A stretch of 64,000 nucleotides of DNA from Candidatus Micrarchaeota archaeon (GCA_021814005.1 JAKAJC010000002.1:4325-68324), one strand, 5' to 3'; shown: positions 47,822-63,203, numbered from the stretch's first letter. A program made the numbers and translations. The notes: generated by a model not told the origin, from the sequence alone.

Positions 47822-48043
47822 GATGCCACCTCTAAGGTGCCGCCATTGACGCGACGATGCACTTCTTAGTGCTCCTTAATAAGTATTTTCTTATAAAGCT
47901 TTGCGAGGAACGCTTGCGCCGACGACGTGGCGGGCAGAATTCAAACATAAGGGGGACCCATCGACGGGGCTTTTGGCCCTATCGGCCCCCATCTCCCGGC
48001 CGTCGTATAACATGTTGGCGCATGGTTCATGTGTGTGGTAAAA
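47822..48043. promoter_or_regulatory. Candidate replication origin region (oriC) between sepF and orc1/cdc6
   Basis: Intergenic 222 bp. An AT-rich segment (CTTAATAAGTATTTTCTTATAAAGCTTT, about 47873-47903) is flanked by G-string elements of similar sequence in opposite orientation (GGGGGACCCATCGACGGGG near 47950, and rc GGGGGCCGATAGGGCC near 47975). Position next to orc1 is the common archaeal arrangement. Confidence 0.3.
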
Positions 48044-49402
48044 ATGCCGTCTTTCGATGACATCCTGTCGGCCCCCACCCTGTTCGCAGACAGGGGCGTG
48101 CTTTCGCCTCACTGGGTGCCGGATGTTCTGCCTTTCCGCGAAAAGGAAACAACGCGTATCATGACGGCCGTGGCCCCCGCCCTTGCGCACGAGCGCTCCC
48201 GCAACCTTTTCATCTACGGCAAGACCGGCACGGGCAAGACCTGCACGGTCCGAAAAGTCATGGCAGAATTCGAGGCAAGAAAATCATCCGCCCGCTCCTG
48301 CTACATCAACTGCCGCATGTACAATTCGCGTTATCGTGTCATCCAGAAAATGGCCAAGGATTTTGTTCCCGAACTTGACCGCTCGGGTTTTGGGCTCAAC
48401 ACTCTTTACGAGAAAATGATGGAATGGATTTCGCTCGACGAATCAGCCCCGACACCAAAAACCGGCAGGCGCGTGGTGGTTGTGCTTGACGAGGTGGACA
48501 TGGTGCGGGATTTGGACGAGCTGCTCTACACCCTCACACGCATGAATGACGAGTTGCAGGCCGGCTCCATCTCCATAATCGGCATAACAAACCGCCTCTC
48601 GTTCAAGGACGCGCTCGACCCGCGCTCCAAATCCTCGCTTTGCGAAACAGAAATGGTGTTTACCCCCTACTCCCCCAGCCAGCTGCGCGAAATATTGGCG
48701 CGGCGCACAGAAATGGGATTCAAGAAGGGGGTGGTGGAAGACTCGGCCATAAACTTGGCTGCCGCCATAGCCGCGCAGGAAACAGGAGACGCGCGCTATG
48801 CGCTCAAACTTCTCTTGCGCGCAGGTGAAATTGCCGATGAAAAGCACCGCCCGCACATAACTCACACTGAAGTGGAGGAGGCGCGCCGCTCGGTTGATGT
48901 TGATTTGGCTGCTGAAACCATTGCAACCTTGCCTGTTCACCAGCAGCTGGTTCTTTTGGCTGTATGCAACTTGTCATTAGAGGGCCAGCGCTATGCGCGT
49001 CTGGGCGGCACGCCATCCAACAATCAGGCAGACGGCGAGCATCATCTCATGTCGGGCGAAGTGTATGAAGAATACTCGCGCCTGTGCCGCACATACAAAA
49101 AGCCCAAGCGCTCGGCGCGCTGGTATCGTGAATATCTCAATGATTTGGAAATGCTGGGGCTCATCACCACAGTGGAATCAGGCCGCGGCATGCGCGGGCG
49201 CACCCGCCTTATCCGCCCAGGCTACTCGCCCGAGCAGATGAAAAAAATAATCGAAAAAAGCGCCGCCATCCACGGGCCGGATGACGCCATGCCTGATTTG
49301 CCGGAGGGCAAGGGCGGCCATTCCTCACTTTCCAAAATAGACGGCCAACTCTCTCTGGGCCGCTCGGACGGACAGGTGTCGAATTCCAAGCCGGCGTGGT
49401 GA
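48044..49402 (+). CDS. orc1: Orc1/Cdc6 replication initiator (paralogue 1)
   Basis: Walker A YGKTGTGKT, Walker B VVVLDEVD, sensor regions and a C-terminal winged helix (…GRGMRGRTRLIRPGYS…), followed by a Gly/Ser tail. Confidence 0.9.
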   Translation: MPSFDDILSAPTLFADRGVLSPHWVPDVLPFREKETTRIMTAVAPALAHERSRNLFIYGKTGTGKTCTVRKVMAEFEARKSSARSCYINCRMYNSRYRVIQKMAKDFVPELDRSGFGLNTLYEKMMEWISLDESAPTPKTGRRVVVVLDEVDMVRDLDELLYTLTRMNDELQAGSISIIGITNRLSFKDALDPRSKSSLCETEMVFTPYSPSQLREILARRTEMGFKKGVVEDSAINLAAAIAAQETGDARYALKLLLRAGEIADEKHRPHITHTEVEEARRSVDVDLAAETIATLPVHQQLVLLAVCNLSLEGQRYARLGGTPSNNQADGEHHLMSGEVYEEYSRLCRTYKKPKRSARWYREYLNDLEMLGLITTVESGRGMRGRTRLIRPGYSPEQMKKIIEKSAAIHGPDDAMPDLPEGKGGHSSLSKIDGQLSLGRSDGQVSNSKPAW

Positions 49403-50046: not shown

Positions 50047-51411
50047 ATGAAAACCAAGCTTATTGATATTCCTAGAATGAGCCAAAAGGAGCAGCAGAAA
50101 AAGTATCCTGGCATAATGACGCATACGGAGTTCATCCGCAAACGGGACTTTCCCCTCCTTGACCGCGCAGACCGGGTATATCTTGATTCTGGAGCCACCA
50201 GTCAGGAGCCGCAGTCAGTGAAGGACAAGATTCACCAGTACCGCAGCACCCATATCCGCGGCAGCAACCATTCTGAGAATTCGGCAGAAGCCAAGGAAGC
50301 GCAGATGCAGATTGAAAATGTCAGGGACAATCTCCAAAACTTCTTCGGCGCTTACGACTATTCCGTCTCCCTCACATCCGGAACAACCGCCTCGTCAATC
50401 GCGGTGGCTTCCCGTTTCAACTTCCACAAAAACGACATTCTTCTGCTCAGCGAGTCGGAGCACAACTCCCAAATCCTGTCCCCGCGAAATTTTGCAGGCG
50501 AGGCCGGCGCCAAGGTGCTCTACATACCGGTAGATTCGGAGGGCCGTCTTGACCTCGACTTCGTGCGCAATCTCGTTGCCAAAAACCCAGACGGCTACAT
50601 CCTGCTCTTTCTGGCCCATGCCTCCAATGTGACCGGCATCGTCCATCCTGTGCAGGAAATCCGCCAAATTTTGCGCGACAGCGACTTCATTTATCTTGAC
50701 ATGGCCCAGTCGGCAGGCCATATTCCTATTTCTCTTGATGATTTGGGCGTGGATTTTGCGGGCGTTTCGGCCCACAAGATGTACGGGCCGTTCGGAACCG
50801 GCGCCCTTTTCGTGCATCCATCCGCCGAAAGGCGCCTTGGCGACCGAGTCAGCGGCGGCAGCGCAGTGCACTGGGTATCCAAAGGGAACGAAAGCATGAT
50901 GGACTTGCCGGAGCGTCTCGAGCCCGGCACCCAGAACATCGAAGGCGCAATCGAGTGGGGCTATGCGCTCGATTATCTCAAACACATCGGCATGGCCAAG
51001 ATTGAAGCCCATGACCGCGAGCTCGGCCGCTATTTTGTCGGAGAGCTCGAGAAAATCAACAGCACTAAAGGCCCCGTCCACATCTACGGGCCCAAGACAT
51101 TCGAAGACCGCATAGCGGTGGTCACCTTCAACATCGGGCGCGAGGACAGCAAGAATTTCGCGCTGGTGGCCCAGAAACTCGACCAGATGGACATCAGCGT
51201 CCGCGACGGCTGTTTCTGCGCCCACATCCTGATGGCCAAGCTGGTAGCAAACGGCTACTTCGAGGAAGATGAAAAGCCTGGCGCGGTTCGCGCGTCATTC
51301 TCGTTCTACAACGACCTCAACGACGCCTACAAGGCGGTTAAGGCAATCGATGATTTGGTCGGCCTTTACCTGGAAGGACGGCTGAAAAAGTCAGGCGGCT
51401 GCAACTGCTGA
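50047..51411 (+). CDS. Class V aminotransferase / cysteine desulfurase-family protein (second paralogue outside the suf operon)
   Basis: The PLP-lysine motif SAHKMYGPFGTGALFV and class V fold signatures are present. A C-terminal CxxC-like GGCNC is unusual. It is 454 aa. Confidence 0.75.
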   Translation: MKTKLIDIPRMSQKEQQKKYPGIMTHTEFIRKRDFPLLDRADRVYLDSGATSQEPQSVKDKIHQYRSTHIRGSNHSENSAEAKEAQMQIENVRDNLQNFFGAYDYSVSLTSGTTASSIAVASRFNFHKNDILLLSESEHNSQILSPRNFAGEAGAKVLYIPVDSEGRLDLDFVRNLVAKNPDGYILLFLAHASNVTGIVHPVQEIRQILRDSDFIYLDMAQSAGHIPISLDDLGVDFAGVSAHKMYGPFGTGALFVHPSAERRLGDRVSGGSAVHWVSKGNESMMDLPERLEPGTQNIEGAIEWGYALDYLKHIGMAKIEAHDRELGRYFVGELEKINSTKGPVHIYGPKTFEDRIAVVTFNIGREDSKNFALVAQKLDQMDISVRDGCFCAHILMAKLVANGYFEEDEKPGAVRASFSFYNDLNDAYKAVKAIDDLVGLYLEGRLKKSGGCNC

Positions 51412-53019: not shown

Positions 53020-54327
53020 CTACTTTTTTTGTCCGGCCCCACCCGGTTTTTCGTAGGCCGCCATGTCCAAGAGCCCGTGGCCAGAGAAATTGAAGAGCAG
53101 CGTCGCCGCCGCGCCTTTGCGCTTGGCCTCCAGCGCCGTGCGGACCACAGCCGCGATGGCGTGCGTGGTCTCGGGGGCCGGGATGATTCCCTCGCTTTTG
53201 GCGAACAGCTCCGCCATTGGGTTCACGTCGGCCTGCGAAACGGTCTGCGCCTCCACCAATTTGTGCTTCACCATGAGCGACACGCTGGGCGCCGCGCCGT
53301 GGTAGCGCAGTCCGCCGGCGTAAATCGGCGGGGGCATGAAATCCTTTCCAAGAGTGTGCATCTTGATGAGCGGCGTGAGGCCTGCCGAATCGCCGTGGTC
53401 GTATTCGTACTTGCCTTTGGTCAGCGACGGAACGGTGTCCGGCTCGACCGCAATGAGGCGGATGCCGGCCTTCTTGTTCCTGTTTAACTCGTAGAATGGA
53501 AACGCGATGCCGGCGAAGTTGGAGCCGCCGCCGAAGCAGCCGAAGACGTGCGTGGGCGTCTCGTCAGCCATTTTCATCTGTTCGATGCATTCCTGCCCTA
53601 TTATCGTCTGGTGCAAACACACGTGGTTGAGCACGCTGCCCAAAGAATATTTTTTGCCTGTAGTGACTGCGCGCTCAATCGCCTCCGCAATCGCAATTCC
53701 CAAGGAGCCGCTGCTCCTGCCTTCAGCCAGAAACTTCCTGCCAACCTGCGTGGTGTCGGAAGGGGACGGCTTGACGTCGGCTCCGAACATGTTCATCATC
53801 ACCTTGCGGTAGGGTTTCTGCTCATAGCTGCAGCGCACCATGAACACTTCCACGTCCATGCCAAAGAGCATGCCCGCGTATGCCAAAGACGAACCCCACT
53901 GGCCAGCGCCCGTCTCGGTGGCATATCCCTTGACGCCCTCTTTCATTCCATAATAGGCCTGCGCCACCGCCGTGTTGGGCTTGTGCGAGCCGGTGGGGGA
54001 AAGGTCCTCGCGCTTGTAGAATATCTTGACATCGGGCGGCAAGCCGAGATGCTTCTCCAGATTGGTGGCGCGCACCAATGGCCGCGGGCGCAGCAGGCGT
54101 TCGATATACACCTCGCGCAGCTCGGCAGGAATGGGAATGCTGCGGTCATCGTAATTCATCTCCTGCTTGAGCAGTTCGATTGGAAAGAGCGCTGCCATCG
54201 CCTCCAGACTTGCCGGCTCCTTGGTCTTGGGGTCCACATATGGCGGGATTTTTTCCGGCAAATCGGGCAACACGTTGTAGAAACTCTTGGGGAACTCGTT
54301 CTCGTCCAGGTAGATGGCGCGCGACAT
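53020..54327 (-). CDS. trpB2: Tryptophan synthase beta chain-like protein, TrpB2 type
   Basis: TrpB2-specific N-terminal extension (MSRAIYLDENEFPKSFYN...), PLP-lysine region GSHKPNTAV, and GGGSNFAGI. The start is 54327 (MSRAI). Confidence 0.85.
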   Translation of the reverse strand: MSRAIYLDENEFPKSFYNVLPDLPEKIPPYVDPKTKEPASLEAMAALFPIELLKQEMNYDDRSIPIPAELREVYIERLLRPRPLVRATNLEKHLGLPPDVKIFYKREDLSPTGSHKPNTAVAQAYYGMKEGVKGYATETGAGQWGSSLAYAGMLFGMDVEVFMVRCSYEQKPYRKVMMNMFGADVKPSPSDTTQVGRKFLAEGRSSGSLGIAIAEAIERAVTTGKKYSLGSVLNHVCLHQTIIGQECIEQMKMADETPTHVFGCFGGGSNFAGIAFPFYELNRNKKAGIRLIAVEPDTVPSLTKGKYEYDHGDSAGLTPLIKMHTLGKDFMPPPIYAGGLRYHGAAPSVSLMVKHKLVEAQTVSQADVNPMAELFAKSEGIIPAPETTHAIAAVVRTALEAKRKGAAATLLFNFSGHGLLDMAAYEKPGGAGQKK

Positions 54328-54441: not shown

Positions 54442-55215
54442 TCAAATTCGGATGCTCATCCTATCCACGGCGGCAGTGCTGGCTGAAAAAATCCTGCGCG
54501 CCGCCGCCTGTGTTTGCAGCCTGTCTCCCTTTGTTTTGCACAGGTTTGCGGCAAAATGGGTGAGGTAGAGGTGCCCCGCGCCCGCATCTTTGGCCGCCTG
54601 CGCGGCCATTTCGGGATTGAGGTGCGGCCATGAGGGGGAGCTGGGCTGGCCGCTCATCAGCCCGCATTCTGTAATAAGAATGTCGGCATTTTTCGCCAGC
54701 GCGCCAAGATTTTCGCACGGGCCGGTGTCTGTGCAATACGCAATAGTCTTTCCTCCCAATTCGAACCTGTACCCCCAGCAGGGGTCTGCGTGCACCAGCG
54801 GCGCGCAGCGCACAGAATATTCGTCAATGCGGTTGTCGCCCTCGCGCAATTCGTTTATCTGCACGTCAAATCCGCTTTTGCGAAGCATATCGTATGATGC
54901 AGTGTAGGGGCTGGCCACCAGAGCGCCCAGCCACTTCTTGGTGCCGGGCATTCCGAAAATTCTTATCTTGTTTTTCATCAGCCTGAATTTGGGCTGTATG
55001 TGCAGGCCGATTGTGTGGTCAAGATGAAAATGCGAAAGAAAAATGTCAATCGGCTTGGAAGAGTCTACTGCATATTCGTCGAGACGCCAAATCCCGTCAC
55101 CTGCATCCAACACAATATATCTTTTTGGTGTCTCGATGAGCGCGCACACAGTGTTTGCAAGCGGAGTGGCGTACCAGCCGTTGGTGCCAAGAAAAACAAG
55201 GCGCATGTCTGTCAT
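54442..55215 (-). CDS. MBL-fold metallo-hydrolase (RNase Z/ElaC-short-like)
   Basis: LVFLGTNGW...HFHLDHTIGL (HxHxDH) and a C-terminal His; 257 aa. Confidence 0.7.
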   Translation of the reverse strand: MTDMRLVFLGTNGWYATPLANTVCALIETPKRYIVLDAGDGIWRLDEYAVDSSKPIDIFLSHFHLDHTIGLHIQPKFRLMKNKIRIFGMPGTKKWLGALVASPYTASYDMLRKSGFDVQINELREGDNRIDEYSVRCAPLVHADPCWGYRFELGGKTIAYCTDTGPCENLGALAKNADILITECGLMSGQPSSPSWPHLNPEMAAQAAKDAGAGHLYLTHFAANLCKTKGDRLQTQAAARRIFSASTAAVDRMSIRI

Positions 55216-55225
55216 TTCATTCCCT

Positions 55226-55795
55226 CTACGCTCTCCACTTTATCGAGCAGCCGCGGCTCGGCTTGAATCCGCCCGAAGGCATGCGGCCCATCAAAATGTC
55301 GTCGAGCGCAAAAGCCAAATCAGTTGTCGTGGGCTGCGCTTCAGGGCTCATCGCGTCATCTATTCTTCCGTGATATGCAAGCCTCATGCCGGAATCAAAT
55401 ATGAACGGGTCGGGCGTGCAGACCGCGCCGTATGTTTTGGCAACGCTCTGGCTCTCGTCAAACAAATAGGGGAATCTTATCTGGTTTTCAGAAACAAATT
55501 TCTTCATGTGCTCAAAATCATCCTCGGGATATTCGGGGTTGTTGTTTGAATTGATGCCAACAAAAGCCACATTGCGCGGCCTGTAAGTTTCATAGAGCTT
55601 TTTCATGCTGGGCAGTTTTGCAAGCACATATGGGCAGTGGTTGCACATGAAGAAAATCACAAGCGCGTTTGCCTGCTCGAACTCCCCAAGCGAGTGTATC
55701 TTGCCGTCTGTGCCGGACAGCGAGAATGCCGGAGCCGGCTGGCCTATTTTGAGCTTTTGCGCGGATTCAGTCAGCACCATAAACGCACCCTGCAT
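55226..55795 (-). CDS. Thioredoxin-fold protein (redoxin/TlpA-like, CxxC = CNHC)
   Basis: ALVIFFMCNHCPYVLAKLPSMKKLYETY places a Cys pair in a thioredoxin-like context; 189 aa. Confidence 0.6.
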   Translation of the reverse strand: MQGAFMVLTESAQKLKIGQPAPAFSLSGTDGKIHSLGEFEQANALVIFFMCNHCPYVLAKLPSMKKLYETYRPRNVAFVGINSNNNPEYPEDDFEHMKKFVSENQIRFPYLFDESQSVAKTYGAVCTPDPFIFDSGMRLAYHGRIDDAMSPEAQPTTTDLAFALDDILMGRMPSGGFKPSRGCSIKWRA

Positions 55796-55904
55796 GCATC
55801 AGGACATCAATTAAGATAAACCCGCCGGCAACCATAAAGTAAGCCGTATCCGGAGCGGATAACGAACATTTATTAACCTAAAATACCACAATAATATCAT
55901 CTCT

Positions 55905-56606
55905 ATGCGCCCGAAATTACTCCTGTCTACAGTCGGATTGGGCCTTCTGCTCAGCACAGCCACTCTCAAATCACAGGAGAAAATCTTCAATTATGCGTCC
56001 GACAAGCGGGAAGTTGCAGCCAAGACAATTGATGTCGGCAAGTCCAAACTCTTTACAGCCCCGATTTGCGCCGACTCGCTGAAAAACTGGCCTGTTTGGA
56101 GCAAGGCTCCGGTGGATTCCCTCTATCTCGAGATGATGCGCAGCGCGTTTATCGACGAAATATCCAAAATACGCCTGGAAAGCGGGCAGAGCCCCGTAGT
56201 CTCCGAGCGCCATTTCACCCGCCATGCCCAGAAATATGCCGACACGCTGGCGCTCCTGCCAGACAGCCAAATCAGCCATGACGTGACCGGACAGGCCGAA
56301 CGCCTCTCATGGCTGCTGCCATTTGCAAAAAGCGTGCGCGAATGCATTCACCGCGGTTCTGTTTTCACCTCGATATCGGACACTTCGGCCATCTTGTCTG
56401 AAATCCGCCAGTCCGCGCGCCGGCTCATGAACAGCCAAAAGCATGCAAAAGCAATTCTCAACCCAAGCCCCGGCCATGGATTGGGCGGCGTTGGAATTGT
56501 TTTCTGCCAAACCCCAAATTCTTCAGGCTACAGGCTTCTTATCGTCTATACCAGGGGTTGCCATCCAATCCAGCCGCTGAATGCAGGCGCCATTGCCGGG
56601 CCTTAG
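55905..56606 (+). CDS. Secreted CAP/SCP/PR-1-like domain protein (YkwD-like)
   Basis: Signal peptide MRPKLLLSTVGLGLLLSTATLKSQ. HAKAILNPSPGHGLGGVGIVF resembles the YkwD-type CAP motif (H..NILNPNF..IGVG). Confidence is moderate-low. Confidence 0.5.
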   Translation: MRPKLLLSTVGLGLLLSTATLKSQEKIFNYASDKREVAAKTIDVGKSKLFTAPICADSLKNWPVWSKAPVDSLYLEMMRSAFIDEISKIRLESGQSPVVSERHFTRHAQKYADTLALLPDSQISHDVTGQAERLSWLLPFAKSVRECIHRGSVFTSISDTSAILSEIRQSARRLMNSQKHAKAILNPSPGHGLGGVGIVFCQTPNSSGYRLLIVYTRGCHPIQPLNAGAIAGP

Positions 56607-56676
56607 CTGCTTGCGCATTCACGTCTTTCGGGCCCCATAACGCACTCTTATAAACGGGCTTTGGGAAATCAAATCC

Positions 56677-58752
56677 ATGTGGCTTCTGCAGGCTGAAATC
56701 TTCAAGCGGGGCGGGCCGGCGCAGAAACAGCCATCCCCATTTTCAGAACAGGGCCTGTCTGTGCAGGGCCTTCAGGCGCAGGATGTTTTCTTCTGCGGCT
56801 GGGATTATGCATCCAAGCCCCTGCCTCCCCTCGCATCCATTTTCAAGCCAGACCCCAACTTCGTGCTGCAGGACCCGTCAGTCATTAAGATTTCGGGCAA
56901 CTCGCTCGTCACCTCAATCACTGTGCAGGGGGTGCAAAAGCAGCAGTTTGAAATGCCGTCCTACGTGGCCGGAACGCGCTCCAAGGTAAAGCACACCGGA
57001 CAGGCTGCAGACGCAATCCGCGACCTCGACGAGCGGCTTGCCGAGTACGGCCACCTGTCAGGCGGAGAGAGAATAGTCGTCCAGCTGCCCCTCGAGCTGG
57101 CCGGCGCGGCAGGCCAGCAAATCAACGATGACGTTAGAAACACCCTGATTTCGGGAGTCAAGCGCTCGATTCAGCGCCATGCCGGCGTGGCAGATGCTGA
57201 CGCCTACATGCAGGCAAATAACATCGAAATCGAGGTGCGCGCAGGCACGGTGTCGGGGCCCCAGTTCGCGGCCTCTGTGCTGCGCCTGGATTTGGATGCA
57301 GCCGGATTTGACGCGCTCAAAAAAGGCCTGGCCGAATACGCCGTTCTTCCGCCCGAAACAATCGCATTGATTCATGGGGCCAAAACCGGGCAGGAGCTGG
57401 CCAAAATACTGGGCGCCAACCAGGGCCCGGTGCAGTTTAATCAGGGATATCAGAAATATCCTGTCATCGACCGAGTCTTCGACCTCTCGCGGCAGGTTGT
57501 GGTTTACAATCCGTTCGAATTCCATGTTGAAGTGCAGGCAGACGAAATCAGGGTGCGGCTGCAGCACCAGCCCAACGACCCGTCTAAAATATCAAAACGA
57601 TTCGAGGAGCTCAACAACCAGCGGGTTTTCCTCTTCTCCTACGACGCCAACGGAAACGAAATCCGCACCCAGTGCAAGTTTGTTTACAGCAAATCAAACG
57701 GCGAGGCAAGCGTGTGCGACAACTCCGGCAGGCCGGTCCCGCTCAGCTCGTTTTTGGCCGGCAGCACGGAGCGCCCGGTTCCGGTCGGCTCCAGCATCGC
57801 GCTCTCGCTCGAAGGGGTGAATATCGAGTACCGCCTCTTCAAGATTGGCGAGACGCGGGTGCCGCCGGTAATCACAAAAACCATTCCAAAAATGCCTCCC
57901 AATGTCCCGCAGTTCTCCGGCCTGCTCTCAAGCGAGCTGTCAATCCAGTACGGCGCGCTGGACAACACCGGCCCGGGTTTCAAGGACAAAGACTTCGATT
58001 TGGTGAACAGGGGCATGCAGTCCACCCCGCACTCATTCCCGATAAAAACCGGCACGCAGGACCAGTCGGTCATCGGCATCAACGAGGTGCATGTTGGCAC
58101 CTATCGCGTCGTGATGCAGGAAGAGGGTGACGACTCTTTCAGCATTGTCCTCAAAAACGACCAGTTCGACCGCCTTTCCAGCCCCGGCAACAGGCCAAAA
58201 GACGATTACGGCCGGATTCGCGTGAATGATTTGCTGCACCAGTCAAAACCGCCGTCGCGCGTGGACATCAAAGACCCCCACGTGAAGCATGACTCCAATA
58301 GCTTCTATTACGAAATCTCTGACCCGCTTGTGATGATGGTGGACATCTCAAAGCCGTTGTCGAACTTCCAGTCGCAGGGCGGGGAAGTGAAGACTGCCGC
58401 GCTGCAGATGTTTGTGGACGACTTCCAGGCCCGCAAATGGGGCAGCCATTTCACAGTCATGCTCAACGGCATGCCTGCGCCTTTCATCTCCAATGTGCTC
58501 AACCAGCTGGACCAGTCGGGCCCGGTGGAGCAGATGGTAACGATTCCAATCCCGCCCGAATATATCGATGCAATCAAAAGCGGCAAGCTGACCATCTCAA
58601 TCAACGAGACTACTGGCAAGGGAGACGGCTATGCTATAGACGCGCTCTTTTTGTACATCAACCCGGACCAGGCCATGCTGGACAAGCAGGCGGCGACCGA
58701 AGCCAGAAGCAGGACGGCCACACCGCAGAACCAGCCAGGCAGACGCCGCTAG
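56677..58752 (+). CDS. Large orphan protein (691 aa), no recognisable domain, no TM/signal, no NTPase motifs
   Basis: Long ORF with coherent composition and no overlapping plausible alternative. The N-terminal start is uncertain. It ends 67 bp before orc1/cdc6-2. Confidence 0.5.
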   Translation: MWLLQAEIFKRGGPAQKQPSPFSEQGLSVQGLQAQDVFFCGWDYASKPLPPLASIFKPDPNFVLQDPSVIKISGNSLVTSITVQGVQKQQFEMPSYVAGTRSKVKHTGQAADAIRDLDERLAEYGHLSGGERIVVQLPLELAGAAGQQINDDVRNTLISGVKRSIQRHAGVADADAYMQANNIEIEVRAGTVSGPQFAASVLRLDLDAAGFDALKKGLAEYAVLPPETIALIHGAKTGQELAKILGANQGPVQFNQGYQKYPVIDRVFDLSRQVVVYNPFEFHVEVQADEIRVRLQHQPNDPSKISKRFEELNNQRVFLFSYDANGNEIRTQCKFVYSKSNGEASVCDNSGRPVPLSSFLAGSTERPVPVGSSIALSLEGVNIEYRLFKIGETRVPPVITKTIPKMPPNVPQFSGLLSSELSIQYGALDNTGPGFKDKDFDLVNRGMQSTPHSFPIKTGTQDQSVIGINEVHVGTYRVVMQEEGDDSFSIVLKNDQFDRLSSPGNRPKDDYGRIRVNDLLHQSKPPSRVDIKDPHVKHDSNSFYYEISDPLVMMVDISKPLSNFQSQGGEVKTAALQMFVDDFQARKWGSHFTVMLNGMPAPFISNVLNQLDQSGPVEQMVTIPIPPEYIDAIKSGKLTISINETTGKGDGYAIDALFLYINPDQAMLDKQAATEARSRTATPQNQPGRRR

Positions 58753-58818
58753 ATTTTTCTCCACCCAAAAACCCTGACACTTTCGTCAGTTTGATAAACC
58801 TCCTCCTCCTTCTGCATC

Positions 58819-59931
58819 TTGATGGCCTCAAACATTTTCAAGCAGATGGCGTCCTCGGGCGGCATCTTCCGTGACGAGTCGGTGCTGCAGCCCGATTTTC
58901 TCCCCGAAGAAATGCCTGGCCGCGAGCGGCAGATGCGCGATTTGGCCTCATTTCTGCAGCCCGTCACCCGCAATCAGGCGCCCTCAAGCGTTCTCATAGT
59001 GGGCTCGCCCGGGCTTGGCAAAACCACCATGGCAAAGCTTGTGCTAAAGCAGCTTGGCGAGGTTTCCAAGCGCGCCCTGCCCATTTACATCAACTGCTGG
59101 GAAACCTCCACCCGTTTCGGCATACTCAACGAGCTGGTTACTGCTTTGGGCGACATGCTGCCGCGGCGCGGCATAGCAGTCGACGAAGTGGTTGCGCGGC
59201 TCAAGGAAATCGGGCGGCGCGAGCAGTGCCCGCTTCCAATTGTTGTGCTGGACGAGGTTGACCGCCTTCTTGCCTCAAACGCGCGCGAAGACCAGGTGCT
59301 CTATGATTTGTCGCGCAGCGCCGAGGCGCTCGGCCTGCCCTGCGCTGTCATCGGCATCACAAACGATGTCGAGCTGCCAATGAAACTGGACGCGCGCGTG
59401 CGCTCCTCCCTTACAAACCATGTCATCAATTTCTCGCCCTACAACCCGACCGAGCTGAAAAGCATTCTAGGCGAGAGGGCGAAGCGGGCTTTCCAGCCCT
59501 CAGCCCTTGATTCCGAAGTCATTCCCCTGTGCGCCGCAGTGGGGGCAAAGGCGGGCGGAGACGCGCGCATTTCCATTCATCTTCTCTGGGCAGCGGCACG
59601 GGCAGCCGACAGCGAGGGGGCATCAAAAGTCGGCATTGCGCATGTCAAGGCAATGCAGGCCTCGGCGCTTGAAGCAGCCGCCATTCCGGCTTCGCGCAAA
59701 ATAAATGATTTGGACGAGATGGACCGCAAGCTGGTTCAGCTGATTTCAAAATCCGCCGATTCAGGCCTTTCATCTGGCGAGCTTTATGCAAAGCTCAAGG
59801 CCGGAGAGGCCGAACAGCGCACTTTGCGCAACCGCCTCGCGCGCCTTGAAAAAGGCGGGCTTATCACAGGCGAGGAAATCGACAAGGCCGGCGGGCATAC
59901 GCGCAGATGGAAGATTCGAAAGACTGCATAA
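58819..59931 (+). CDS. Orc1/Cdc6 replication initiator (paralogue 2)
   Basis: Walker A VGSPGLGKTT, Walker B VVLDEVDRL, and a C-terminal winged helix (…RLEKGGLITGEEIDKAGGHTRRWKI); 370 aa. Confidence 0.85.
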   Translation: MMASNIFKQMASSGGIFRDESVLQPDFLPEEMPGRERQMRDLASFLQPVTRNQAPSSVLIVGSPGLGKTTMAKLVLKQLGEVSKRALPIYINCWETSTRFGILNELVTALGDMLPRRGIAVDEVVARLKEIGRREQCPLPIVVLDEVDRLLASNAREDQVLYDLSRSAEALGLPCAVIGITNDVELPMKLDARVRSSLTNHVINFSPYNPTELKSILGERAKRAFQPSALDSEVIPLCAAVGAKAGGDARISIHLLWAAARAADSEGASKVGIAHVKAMQASALEAAAIPASRKINDLDEMDRKLVQLISKSADSGLSSGELYAKLKAGEAEQRTLRNRLARLEKGGLITGEEIDKAGGHTRRWKIRKTA

Positions 59932-59948: not shown

Positions 59949-60791
59949 ATGCTTCGCATCGGACCGGCCGGCATTCCGCATTCCACCCCCAGCCCCGGCG
60001 GCACGCTCGAGGGCGTGCGCCACTGCCGCAAAATCGGGCTGGGCGCGATGGAAGTGGAATTTGTGCAGGGCGTGCGCATGAAAGACGAGCTGGCCGAAAC
60101 GGTTGGCGAGGAGTCGCTGCGCACCGATGTTTCCCTCTCTGTCCATGCGCCCTATTTCATCAACCTGTGCAGCGACGAAGAGTCGAAGCTGGCAAATTCG
60201 CGCAGGCACATCCTGCAGTCTGCGCGCGCCGCCCATCTCATGCACGCCTCACCCGTAGTGTTTCACCCCGGATTTTATCAGGGAAGGCCGAAGGCGGAAT
60301 GCGCAAAGAGGGCGAAAAAAGAATTGCAGCGCGTGATTGATGAAATGCAGCAGGTCGGCTGGACTGACGTTGTTCTGGGGCCGGAGCTGACGGGCAAAAA
60401 GAGCGCCTATGGAGACCTTGATGAAATTATCGAGCTGTCACGCCATTTCGGAATCAAGGCCGTGCAGCCTGTCGTCGACTTCGGCCACTACCATGCGCGC
60501 ATTGCAAGGCTGAAGCGCTCCGACGACTTTGTCAAAATACTTGAGCAGGCCGAAAAAGTCCTCGGCTCGGACTACAAACAGGCATTCCACTGCCATTATT
60601 CCGAAATCCAGTTCACTGATGCGGGTGAGGGAAAGCATCTTCCAATCGGCATGGGCGGGCCGCCGTTTGCCCCTCTATTGGCTGCTCTTGAGGAGCGCGG
60701 CTACACCGGCAAAATAATCTGCGAATCACCCAAATTGGAAGAGGACGCGCTGATAATGCAAAAAGCATACGACAAAATGAGGACGAAATAA
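59949..60791 (+). CDS. nfo: AP endonuclease family 2 / endonuclease IV-like TIM-barrel protein
   Basis: MLRIGPAGIP...LEGVRHCRKIGLGAMEVEF, SVHAPYFINLCS (Nfo HAPYLINLA-like) and a C-terminal His/Asp/Glu metal ligand pattern. Confidence 0.65.
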   Translation: MLRIGPAGIPHSTPSPGGTLEGVRHCRKIGLGAMEVEFVQGVRMKDELAETVGEESLRTDVSLSVHAPYFINLCSDEESKLANSRRHILQSARAAHLMHASPVVFHPGFYQGRPKAECAKRAKKELQRVIDEMQQVGWTDVVLGPELTGKKSAYGDLDEIIELSRHFGIKAVQPVVDFGHYHARIARLKRSDDFVKILEQAEKVLGSDYKQAFHCHYSEIQFTDAGEGKHLPIGMGGPPFAPLLAALEERGYTGKIICESPKLEEDALIMQKAYDKMRTK

Positions 60792-60811: not shown

Positions 60812-61405
60812 ATGGATTCAGACCAGATTGCCCGCATCGGATACAACCTTCTCGCGCCGTTCTACGATTTCTTTTTGGGCTCTGATTCGAAAATAGGGCT
60901 GCATATGCGCCAAGACATAGCCCGCCGCCTTGAACTTCGCAAAGGAGCCCGCATTCTCGAAGTGTCTGTAGGCACAGGGGCAAATCTTCCCTTCATCTAC
61001 AAAAAAATCGGCAGGACAGGCAAAATATTCGGGCTCGACATTTCGGAAGGAATGCTTGCCAAATGCCGTGAAAATATTGTCAAAAAAGGCATTCCGGCCC
61101 AGCTTGTCTTGGGCAATGCCAATAATCTGCCATACAAAGACAACAGCTTTGACGCCGTGCTGCATTTCGGCGCAATAAATTTTTTCTCAAACAAGCGCAA
61201 GGCAATATCTGAAATGGTGCGGGTGGCAAAGCCGGGGGCGAAAATAGTGATAGGCGATGAGCGCCTTCCCCTCATGCGCAGCACCGAGCCGCCAGTAAAC
61301 CTGATTCCAAAAAACGCTGTCAATCTCGGGGTGAGCGAGGAAAAACTAATCTTTCAGGGCTTCTGGATGCTCGAATTGCGAAAATTGCGAAAAGCAGAGA
61401 AATAA
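60812..61405 (+). CDS. Class I SAM-dependent methyltransferase (Methyltransf_11/UbiE-like)
   Basis: ILEVSVGTGANL (motif I), GLDISEGML (post-I) and FDAVLHFGAINF. Confidence 0.75.
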   Translation: MDSDQIARIGYNLLAPFYDFFLGSDSKIGLHMRQDIARRLELRKGARILEVSVGTGANLPFIYKKIGRTGKIFGLDISEGMLAKCRENIVKKGIPAQLVLGNANNLPYKDNSFDAVLHFGAINFFSNKRKAISEMVRVAKPGAKIVIGDERLPLMRSTEPPVNLIPKNAVNLGVSEEKLIFQGFWMLELRKLRKAEK

Positions 61406-61408
61406 TTC

Positions 61409-62416
61409 TCAAACCATCTCGAACAAGTCGAGGCGCATTTCCACTCCCAGAGCTCCGGCCAGCGCGCCTGCAGTCACAATGCTTATCACAAGCGAAATTA
61501 GGGGATAAACAATTGCGTAAAGATTTAGCACGCCCAAAAATGCTGCCACGGGAGCGTAAAGATTTAGCGAGCGGGCGGCCAAATCCTTGCCGTCCACCCC
61601 CATTGTCGCATTCATCATGTCGCCGGGCTTGTCCCAGTCAATGATTGGCAGTGTCTGCATCACCGCCTTCTCATTCTGCGTCCATGCGTCCATCACCGCC
61701 CCCTGTGCCGCGGCCAGCGGCCCGCCGGCCACTAGCGCCGCATAGAGCATCGGATAAACAAGGAAAAACGCAATTGCCGCGCCCATTATCGCCGCGCCAA
61801 GCTTTCGCGTTGGGAAAAACATGCGCAGCAAAAGGCCGGCAGGCAGGAACAGGTTGAATCCCTGCATTGCAGTCATAGCCAGAAATTCGCGCTGTGTCTG
61901 CAAAAGCGCCTGCGTGTTTGCAAGAGATGCGGCCCAGTCTGCATAAGTTCGCGCCGGCCATTCCAGAGCCTTGAACGGGGTGGAAGTGAGCACATTGGCA
62001 GAAAGAGTGAGGCCAGACAAATAAGCAAATTTGTATGAGTGGCTCATGAGCGCCATGCTCACATTCTGCGCCCCGCCGGCCGCCTGCTCAAGTGTGCAGA
62101 GCGATGCATTCATTGCAGAATGCGTTGCTGCCGAAGAAATGTTGGCTGTTGTGTTGCAGTTGAGAATTGTGCCTGCCGGCACTGTGGATGAAACAAACAC
62201 GCTGGATGTCACGGTGAGGCCGACAAGCGCGCCCAGAATGGCGGCATTGAATATTGCCTGCCCCAATTCTTCGGCCCCCCACGCCCACAGCTTGCGGCTG
62301 CCCAAAGCCCTGCCTATGCCCAAGGCAATGCCCGCGAAAAGAATGCTGATAACGACTAAATCAATTGCCAAAGTCCAGGCCGAGCCGCCTGGTGCGAGTT
62401 CGGCAGCCAAAGCCAT
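61409..62416 (-). CDS. Polytopic membrane protein, unknown function (third gene of a 3-gene membrane operon)
   Basis: 335 aa, about 7 TM helices, with a central Ser/Thr/Asn/Cys-rich extracytoplasmic loop. It lies 9 bp after the upstream small gene. Confidence 0.5.
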   Translation of the reverse strand: MALAAELAPGGSAWTLAIDLVVISILFAGIALGIGRALGSRKLWAWGAEELGQAIFNAAILGALVGLTVTSSVFVSSTVPAGTILNCNTTANISSAATHSAMNASLCTLEQAAGGAQNVSMALMSHSYKFAYLSGLTLSANVLTSTPFKALEWPARTYADWAASLANTQALLQTQREFLAMTAMQGFNLFLPAGLLLRMFFPTRKLGAAIMGAAIAFFLVYPMLYAALVAGGPLAAAQGAVMDAWTQNEKAVMQTLPIIDWDKPGDMMNATMGVDGKDLAARSLNLYAPVAAFLGVLNLYAIVYPLISLVISIVTAGALAGALGVEMRLDLFEMV

Positions 62417-62425
62417 ATCTTGGCC

Positions 62426-62671
62426 TCACTTGAGAAGAGTGGACGATGTGTCGGCAATAAGCTGCGCCGCGCCGGTGAGAGCAGCCACGATTATGCCGCC
62501 GATTATCATGCCCATAGCCATTGACTGCCATTTGCCTCTGTTTTCGGCCGGTTGTGTCTGCGCAAGGCCGTAGGCAATGGCGCCCAATACAATAAGAATG
62601 ATGGAAATGCTCGGGCCCAGCATCAGAAGCGTTGTCTTTATGCTTTCAACAAGTCCGACTACGCTTGCCAT
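62426..62671 (-). CDS. Small two-TM membrane protein (81 aa), unknown function
   Basis: Two hydrophobic helices are separated by a short polar loop (…AQTQPAENRGKWQ…). It is tightly packed between its neighbours, with a 4-nt gap upstream. Confidence 0.45.
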   Translation of the reverse strand: MASVVGLVESIKTTLLMLGPSISIILIVLGAIAYGLAQTQPAENRGKWQSMAMGMIIGGIIVAALTGAAQLIADTSSTLLK

Positions 62672-62675
62672 GGGC

Positions 62676-63203
62676 TCACTTCTCCAGCCGGCTCACAATC
62701 ACGGTCGTGAGCGCGGCGCCGATGGCGGCCATCACCATGGTGACAAAGACCATGACAAGGGGCAGGGCCACCAGATAAGTAATGTCATTGAACGAGGCTC
62801 CGAGCGGTTTGCCGACTTTGAGCATTCCGGTCGCGATGATGACGAGCGCGCCGAGCATTGCGCCGACAAGGCCGGCCAGCGCGGCCGCAATCACGCCGCC
62901 CCTTACCTGCAGGGTGGTTGTGCCCCGCACGCGCTCGAGCATGAGCGCGCTTATCGCGCCCACCACAAGCGGCAGAAGGCAGACAAGCGGCAGATAGACT
63001 GCGGCATACATTTCGTTGCCGCTCGACTGCGCGCCCCAGATGTTGAGGCCCGCGGCCAAGACTATGAAAATGAACTGCAGCGCGCCGCCCGGAATAGCGG
63101 ACAGCACGATTTCGCCAATGGTGCGCACAGGCCCCGCGGGCAAAAATGTCAGGAGCGGCTTGCTCGCTCCGGCCGTCTTGGATGAATCAGATGGGGATGC
63201 CAT
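62676..63203 (-). CDS. Polytopic membrane protein (175 aa, about 5 TM), unknown function; first gene of the membrane operon
   Basis: Hydrophobic throughout after a short Ser-rich N-terminus. Confidence 0.5.
   Translation of the reverse strand: MASPSDSSKTAGASKPLLTFLPAGPVRTIGEIVLSAIPGGALQFIFIVLAAGLNIWGAQSSGNEMYAAVYLPLVCLLPLVVGAISALMLERVRGTTTLQVRGGVIAAALAGLVGAMLGALVIIATGMLKVGKPLGASFNDITYLVALPLVMVFVTMVMAAIGAALTTVIVSRLEK

Follow-up and report, generated by a model that had tools for sequence, protein, structure and literature searches.

A lineage-specific two-gene insertion beside a conserved orc1/cdc6 paralogue in a Micrarchaeota genome, with a possible role at the cell surface

Introduction

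Archaeal genomes usually carry a second, divergent paralogue of the Orc1/Cdc6 initiator (TIGR02928), as in the Orc1-1, Orc1-2 and Orc1-3 sets of Sulfolobus. Archaeal replication origins, with their origin recognition boxes (ORB or mini-ORB) and DNA unwinding element (DUE), commonly adjoin orc1/cdc6 genes, and in other archaea extra Orc1/Cdc6 copies travel with integrated elements. Both habits bear on the locus described here, positions 55905-59931 of a stretch of 64,000 nucleotides (hereafter the window) from a Candidatus Micrarchaeota archaeon (GCA_021814005.1, JAKAJC010000002.1:4325-68324). In this block the second orc1/cdc6 gene of the window, orc1B, is preceded by the genes of a 691-residue protein (p691) and of a smaller protein (p233), and an initial annotation had read the three together as the best candidate in the window for an uncharacterized system, possibly an integrated element or a secondary origin.

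The two genes upstream of orc1B have points of comparison of their own. For p233 these are the CAP/SCP/PR-1 proteins (PF00188, with the bacterial YkwD-like secreted proteins), and for the C-terminal part of p691 the jelly-rolls of carbohydrate-binding modules (CBM6, CBM35, CBM29, CBM15 and CBM8), together with the furin P domain, domain III of Cry toxins and the carbohydrate-binding domains of BcsB. As a pair, p233 and p691 resemble the variable secreted or surface islets of episymbiotic DPANN and candidate phyla radiation (CPR) genomes, being lineage-specific, fast-diverging and orphan-rich, with one product predicted to be secreted and one carrying an adhesion-type domain, and lying between housekeeping genes. 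Micrarchaeota are held to be episymbiotic, which fits an extracellular role of the pair. The arrangement differs from such islets in that it consists of two genes at one fixed slot, where the order of small and large gene is constant but the orientation of the pair and the identity of the large gene change. We know of no described equivalent of such a fixed-slot cassette, and the literature on Micrarchaeota Cdc6 and on DPANN surface and CBM proteins yielded nothing directly relevant.

Results and discussion

The block is probably a composite, formed by a core chromosomal orc1B and an unrelated, lineage-specific cassette of p233 and p691 that is probably a surface or host-contact module; the structural and synteny parts of this explanation are near-certain. 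The three open reading frames (ORFs), all on the + strand, were recovered as initially annotated, with p233 at 55905-56606, p691 at 56677-58752 and orc1B at 58819-59931 from the TTG of the mechanical ORF, or at 58822-59931 from the ATG used by the gene call. The slot is bordered on the left by a conserved gene for an AhpC/TSA-type thiol peroxidase on the - strand (55226-55795; PF00578, 83 bits) and on the right by orc1B. The intergenic region between AhpC and p233 measures 109 bp, and the p691 stop is separated from the TTG of orc1B by 66 bp (67 bp in the initial annotation) and from its ATG by 69 bp. The same gene order recurs in 16 contigs of independent assemblies (L002, L003 and L128 among them, with the window in DAIEPL010000002.1, GCA_027348425.1), so the arrangement is not an assembly artefact, and the intact 691-codon ORF is identical across these 16 contigs, which come from several samples.

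For comparison, one genome per species was scanned for orc1B, and 50 loci were obtained. Nearly all relatives retrieved with the Orc1/Cdc6 protein are labelled Candidatus Micrarchaeota or Micrarchaeia (DPANN). In four of them the slot is empty, the starts of AhpC and orc1B lying 51-237 bp apart (L034, L005, L006 and L017, with orc1B 73, 60, 60 and 58% identical to that of the window, respectively). The corresponding spacing in the window is 3,026 bp and contains p233 and p691, which, because of the short distance in these four relatives, we read as an insertion of ~3.0 kb. Judged from these comparisons, the slot is ancestrally a short divergent AhpC-orc1B intergenic region that varies within the sub-clade.

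Three further relatives have filled slots. In L054 (GCA_902384555.1; orc1B 71% identical), a p691 orthologue truncated by the contig end (P0003, 57-60% identical over residues 398-691) is found 160 bp upstream of orc1B. The slot of L126 (orc1B 81%, AhpC 83%) reads AhpC(-), p577(-), P0161(-), orc1B(+), that is, the cassette is inverted and the small gene again stands upstream of the large one. The position of p691 is taken there by p577 (1887-3620 of L126), a helix-rich orphan of 577 amino acids with no Pfam match and no similarity to the N-terminal region of p691 (Smith-Waterman z=1.3). Both p577 and p691 start with M-x-L-(L)-Q-A, possibly by coincidence. In L004 (orc1B 90%), a P0161-like ORF diverges from orc1B before the contig ends. 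No relative of p233 or of the N- or C-terminal part of p691 was found within 10 kb of orc1B in any other Micrarchaeota locus. Homology of the junctions between small and large gene in the window and in L126 (CATAACGC...TATA...ATG) was also considered and dropped, as a MAFFT alignment gave no support. The view of the block as uncharacterized thus holds for p233 and p691, a lineage-specific insertion between conserved genes that is absent from the empty-slot relatives, and not for orc1B, which is syntenic, occurs in ~35 Micrarchaeota metagenome-assembled genomes (MAGs) and falls outside the inserted part.

By family score and motif content, orc1B is a complete member of the Orc1/Cdc6 family, in agreement with the initial annotation, and its origin binding and initiation activity are predicted. 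The protein scores 252.3 bits on TIGR02928 (cutoff 181.3; residues 16-362 against model positions 1-362 of 366) and 72.5 bits on PF22703 (Cdc6_lid), and has a Walker A motif (GSPGLGKT) at residue 62, a Walker B motif (IVVLDE) at 141 and a sensor-2 GDAR at 247. In its AAA+ core, Walker motifs, GDAR and Cdc6 lid it is like the archaeal sets described above; it differs from them in being short (369-370 amino acids) and in having no match to Pfam WHD_Cdc6 (PF09079), with a weak HTH_20 match (E 0.0039) over residues 303-351, the TIGR02928 alignment nevertheless spanning the C-terminal winged-helix region. The other copy, orc1A (48029-49402, + strand; 457 amino acids, WHD_Cdc6 present), is only 27-30% identical to orc1B.

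The ~35 MAGs hold orc1B orthologues of 37-90% identity, each nearer to orc1B than to orc1A. The relatives closest in synteny (L005, L006 and L017, orc1B 58-60% identical) share the order orc1A-HD-DUF1805-S26e-Spt4-Rpo7-MBL-AhpC(-), followed by orc1B(+) and, further on, APendo, p335, p81 and p175, and the position of orc1A relative to orc1B is kept in close relatives. Because of these orthologues and of the conserved synteny in the closest relatives, orc1B is best described as a vertically inherited, chromosomal core paralogue of Micrarchaeota and not as cargo of an element. The proximity of the two paralogues, within 5-10 kb of each other in the clade of the window, is another difference from the described archaeal sets. 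The distance between them is ~9.4 kb in the window and ~4-5 kb in L005, L006 and L017; this clustering is limited to the family-level clade of the window, and in more distant Micrarchaeota loci no orc1A lies 10 kb or less from orc1B. An archaeal Orc1/Cdc6 39% identical to orc1B is encoded on a contig of 3.8 kb that was assigned to 'Sulfurovum sp.' (L036, JAIVYC010000095.1) and is probably a mis-binned DPANN contig.

Hydropathy and a motif check agree with the initial description of p691, a protein that has neither a transmembrane (TM) segment (maximum Kyte-Doolittle hydropathy over 19 residues, KD19, 0.94) nor a P-loop and whose N-terminus is not signal-like. The further statement that it matches no family stands for Pfam, NCBIfam, PHROGs, PADLOC and PDB sequences, and a word-indexed database search with p233 and p691 returned only the proteins themselves; an exhaustive HMMER search over 1.84 billion representatives, however, finds 329 cluster representatives, and only residues 1 to ~414 are orphan. 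This N-terminal region (residues 1-414; 56677-57918, + strand) has no homologue in that search, no internal repeat and no similarity to the C-terminal part of the protein. Prediction of full-length p691 with AlphaFold2 (AF2) from the single sequence was unusable (pLDDT 36.8), with values below 50 for residues 1-414. The region nevertheless looks like real coding sequence, since its in-frame coding score (+0.31) and its GC content at third codon positions (GC3, 0.72) equal those of core genes.

By several alignments, the C-terminal part contains the whole of a bipartite domain of ~200 amino acids that has no name (residues ~415-668; 57919-58680, + strand). Counted as cluster representatives at 50% identity, the HMMER search gave 329 family members at E<=1e-3 and 230 at E<=1e-10, all through residues ~563-666. 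A second, weak stretch (residues 414-490) is always colinear and lies ~85-90 residues upstream in the targets, a profile of the upstream half alone matches residues 419-489 (18.9 bits, conditional E 1.2e-7), tblastn from p691 to L055 gives a single gapped alignment across the whole unit (E 3e-30), and the 13 invariant family positions of alignment A1 are all kept in p691; together these four results are the reason for regarding the copy as complete. The family consensus reads GDIDNLGFGWP..FSG.STP.H.YPW..GTDRIMV..DGYT ... LQMFVDDFQ ... QTGPIGKL ... GAGDGYAIDFV.LLINP, and p691 carries GALDN at 426, STPHS at 449, VDDFQ at 580 and GDGYAID at 649, along with a lineage-specific insertion of ~50-55 residues that it has in common with P0003.

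Hundreds of bacterial and archaeal proteins, called 'hypothetical' in the source databases, belong to this family, many of them with signal peptides and with CarboxypepD_reg, SLH, Cu_amine_oxidN1 or fn3 domains as partners. In the members collected (P0004-P0151; loci L055-L125) a CarboxypepD_reg domain usually comes after the family domain. Neither p691 nor ten family members have a Pfam or NCBIfam match in the domain region, and a profile search of the PDB found nothing relevant; the family, with more than 300 clusters, is an un-named one with no Pfam, NCBIfam or PDB entry and a CBM-like C-terminal half. When AF2 was given alignment A1 (pTM 0.72), residues 549-684 (58321-58728, + strand) were modeled at pLDDT >90, and the predicted fold class, a CBM-like β-jelly-roll or galactose-binding-domain-like β-sandwich, is near-certain. 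Foldseek agrees on the fold class, with no match at E<=1e-3, and a search of viral folds in BFVD gave generic jelly-roll matches only, none at E<=1e-3.

The likeness to the CBM jelly-rolls lies in this predicted fold. The domain differs from them in belonging to no CBM family by sequence, in having a ligand-binding capacity that is only predicted, and in being bipartite, with a conserved N-terminal half of ~90 amino acids (GDIDNLGFGWP...H.YPW...GTDRIMV...DGYT) that has no known counterpart and whose H.YPW, GTDRIMV and DGYT motifs may form a site for catalysis or for a metal. Assignment of the p691 C-terminus to a curated CBM family was rejected, there being no Pfam or NCBIfam match and an identity of ~10%.

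The initial annotation had called p233 (55905-56606) a secreted CAP-domain protein. Its N-terminus, MRPKLLLSTVGLGLLLSTA, is indeed signal-peptide-like, with MRPK followed by LLLSTVGLGLLLSTA (KD19 1.43, a reading of hydropathy), and its in-frame coding score is positive. The CAP assignment, in turn, is reached only through a homologue. The protein itself has no match in Pfam even at E<=10, and none in NCBIfam, PHROGs or PDB sequences. It is homologous to P0161 of L126 (Smith-Waterman z=8.4, Gumbel p~1e-5) and to the L004 ORF (z=6.7; BLASTP within the p233 family E 6e-5). Of 24,736 Pfam models, P0161 matches a single one, CAP PF00188 (E 0.044, over positions 6-78 of 117 in the profile), and its 15.1 bits fall short of the gathering score (21.1). 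PF00188 does not match the L004 ORF, and the p233-family profile found no CAP sequence among PDB sequences.

Membership of p233 in PF00188 at the gathering score was thus rejected, p233 having no match and P0161 lying below threshold. Three residues, H125, E146 and H180, are invariant across p233, P0161 and the L004 ORF, and we take them to be reminiscent of the His/Glu tetrad of CAP proteins, a suggestive likeness. What the family has in common with CAP/SCP/PR-1 proteins is small size, a signal-peptide-like N-terminus and the partial profile alignment of P0161; it differs in that P0161 stays under the Pfam threshold, p233 is undetectable and even the family profile finds no PDB sequence. The p233 family is, on these comparisons, tiny, fast-evolving and of Micrarchaeota, and a remote CAP/SCP-like affinity is plausible but unproven, plausible because the single match of P0161 is to the very family that the initial annotation had proposed beforehand.

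Putative transcription signals separate the genes from one another. A TATA-like, A/T-rich element at 55868-55885 (+), ~20-35 nt upstream of the ATG, is the inferred promoter of p233, and CTTATAAAC at 56647-56655 (+), 22-30 nt upstream of the ATG, that of p691, for which an upstream start is excluded by an in-frame stop at 56638-56640. Right after the p691 stop, ATTTTT at 58753-58758 (+) is a candidate oligo-T termination signal of the archaeal type, followed by a TATA-like box (GTCAGTTTGATAAAC, 58785-58799, +; 23-32 nt upstream of the ATG) that would serve as promoter of orc1B. This box recurs unchanged or almost unchanged in L054, L004 and L126, and A/T-rich boxes stand at the same position in L034, L005, L006 and L017. 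Because it is conserved, including in relatives with an empty slot, orc1B should not need read-through from p691 and would be transcribed from its own promoter; co-transcription of p691 and orc1B, suggested earlier from their spacing, is unlikely in view of the T5 run and of the box kept in relatives that lack p691.

A plasmid or virus that had integrated with its own initiator, leaving the whole block, orc1B included, as its remnant, would suit the habit of extra Orc1/Cdc6 copies in other archaea, the lineage specificity of p233 and p691, and the slightly high tetranucleotide distance of the insertion (z=1.64, 94th percentile of 3-kb windows). We read this distance as host-like composition, however, and GC3 (0.62-0.76) and codon usage in the insertion are like those of the neighbours. 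Within ~20 kb on either side, no Pfam domain of an integrase or of any other mobile-element protein occurs, PHROGs and PADLOC gave nothing meaningful, the flanking repeats are short and at chance level and none is att-like, the sole tRNA of the window (26091) is ~30 kb away, and IMG/VR viral contigs, phage records and plasmid records gave no matches. With orc1B orthologues across Micrarchaeota, conserved synteny in close relatives and orc1B itself outside the inserted part, this early suggestion is largely refuted and its residual probability is minimal. An origin upstream of orc1B, secondary or primary, with p691 and p233 as origin-associated genes, is very unlikely as well. Two initiator genes within 10 kb and the common adjacency of archaeal origins to orc1/cdc6 speak for it. 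Yet the 109-bp and 66-bp intergenic regions hold no repeats, and the whole spacer is 51-237 bp in relatives. Neither 55750-55950 nor 58700-58850 contains direct or inverted repeats, ORB repeats near 58753-58818 having been suspected at the outset; a cryptic origin with divergent single ORB sites could escape such a repeat-based test. No AT-rich stretch that could act as DUE is present (the lowest 200-bp GC, 0.435, is at the p233 promoter), and the cumulative GC skew falls steadily, with no turning point, over the window plus 9.2 kb (73 kb), so that the flank of orc1B has no recognizable origin of the described kind. An inverted G-string pair that looks ORB-like (AGGGGGACCCATCGA / TATCGGCCCCCA) lies between SepF and orc1A at 47951-47991, and orc1A itself contains a third copy at 48064-48077; the pair is absent from L005, L006 and L017 and was rejected.

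Two other explanations concern p691 in particular. One is that p691 works in the cytoplasm, expressed together with Orc1B as its partner or regulator, and re-uses the CBM-like domain to bind protein or nucleic acid. This would agree with the missing export signal, with the co-directional position 66-69 bp upstream of orc1B and with the same adjacency in L054. Most genomes with orc1B lack p691, however, L126 and L004 hold a different, inverted cassette, the T5 run and the conserved orc1B box lie between the two genes, and the homologous domain is found elsewhere in secreted or surface architectures; we regard such a partnership as highly doubtful. Residues 1-414, perhaps the whole cassette, could instead be evolutionary debris under little selection, the result of a domain recently captured and joined to sequence that is either without function or of de novo origin, which is an unlikely but not negligible prospect. 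The lack of any homologue for this region among the 1.84 billion representatives, its very low AF2 confidence and the replaceability of the large gene by the unrelated p577 favor debris, and are set against an ORF of 691 codons that is intact and identical in 16 contigs, codon scores and GC3 as high as those of core genes in both halves, and a C-terminal part that, in a genome with 71% identity in orc1B, is 57-60% conserved and retains every invariant position.

The composite explanation, by comparison, would make the adjacency of cassette and orc1B positional and not functional. A two-gene cassette would have entered the short divergent gap, and in the sub-clade the slot would always hold a small, secreted, CAP-like gene directly upstream of a large one, in an orientation that may flip; the large protein would differ by genome, being p691 in the window and L054 and p577 in L126. 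In p691, the orphan region of ~414 amino acids would be joined to a C-terminal domain of extracellular proteins, presumably acquired horizontally. With p233 exported, p691 could serve in adhesion or host contact, on the cell surface or beyond it, by binding a ligand that is probably a glycan, and the cassette would evolve fast under the pressure of host interaction. The analysis establishes what the genes are, the states of the slot, the homology of the domain, its fold class and the lack of hallmarks of mobile elements and origins. We infer that p691 is exported, binds glycans and takes part in host interaction, and likewise the assigned promoters and terminator, and a surface or host-interaction function of the cassette is a tentative proposal, somewhat short of an even chance.

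Several observations weigh against parts of this explanation. The chief weakness is that p691 has neither a signal peptide nor a TM segment, which leaves its export unexplained. The CAP link of p233 is below threshold and transitive through P0161. In the domain of p691 the N-terminal half is divergent (GTDR to GINE, DGYT to DDSF) and modeled with low confidence, so it may not work like its bacterial counterparts. The evolutionary order of the slot states follows orc1B identity and not a species tree, and the recurrence of p691 beside orc1B in L054 as well as in the window means that functional coupling keeps a low probability.

More speculatively, and with a probability that we place low, the AhpC-orc1B slot could be a dedicated hypervariable host-interaction locus, by analogy with polymorphic adhesin or effector loci and receptor-binding-protein loci. 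The CAP-like partner would be retained, the large specificity subunit swapped and the cassette inverted, with an effect on host cell attachment, and the p691 unit would represent a new and widespread extracellular domain family whose N-terminal half is maybe catalytic. The analysis removes the tempting but wrong reading of an extra Orc1/Cdc6 as a sign of a mobile element or second origin. It leaves three leads, namely a fixed slot, in an uncultivated episymbiont, whose cassette differs between close relatives and which is a candidate for host interaction, a bipartite extracellular domain family of ~200 amino acids with no database entry, and a 414-residue region with no relatives, none of which is surprising in kind for DPANN genomes.

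Neighboring genes

To the left of AhpC, a metallo-β-lactamase (MBL)-fold protein is encoded at 54442-55215 (-). Precomputed tables assign it to PF23023 (Anti-Pycsar Apyc1). Its score on the NCBIfam model for cyclic-nucleotide-degrading phosphodiesterase is 86 bits (cutoff 400), and RNase Z models give 113-116 bits, again below cutoff. Its conservation beside AhpC in relatives points to a probable housekeeping enzyme of RNase Z type and not to an anti-defence gene.

To the right, a cluster of membrane proteins at 61409-63203 (-) comprises p335 (5-6 TM-like segments), p81 (2 TM) and p175 (4-5 TM), and is followed, on to ~64104, by a 279-amino-acid protein. The p335, p81 and p175 proteins belong to no Pfam or PHROGs family and are syntenic in L005, L006, L017 and L054. 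The small two-TM protein beside a polytopic one is, we presume, reminiscent of VirB2/VirB6-type (Ced/Ted-like) components; phmmer with p335 against the PDB gave only a chance-level pilin match (E 0.59).

The same syntenic block shows further differences between the window and these four relatives. A class-V aminotransferase, a TrpB-like PALP enzyme and an S-adenosylmethionine (SAM) methyltransferase are absent from the matching positions in L005, L006, L017 and L054, and the AP-endonuclease-2 gene of the window is inverted relative to all four; the coordinates listed for these differences are 50047-51411, 53020-54327, 60812-61405 and 59949-60791.

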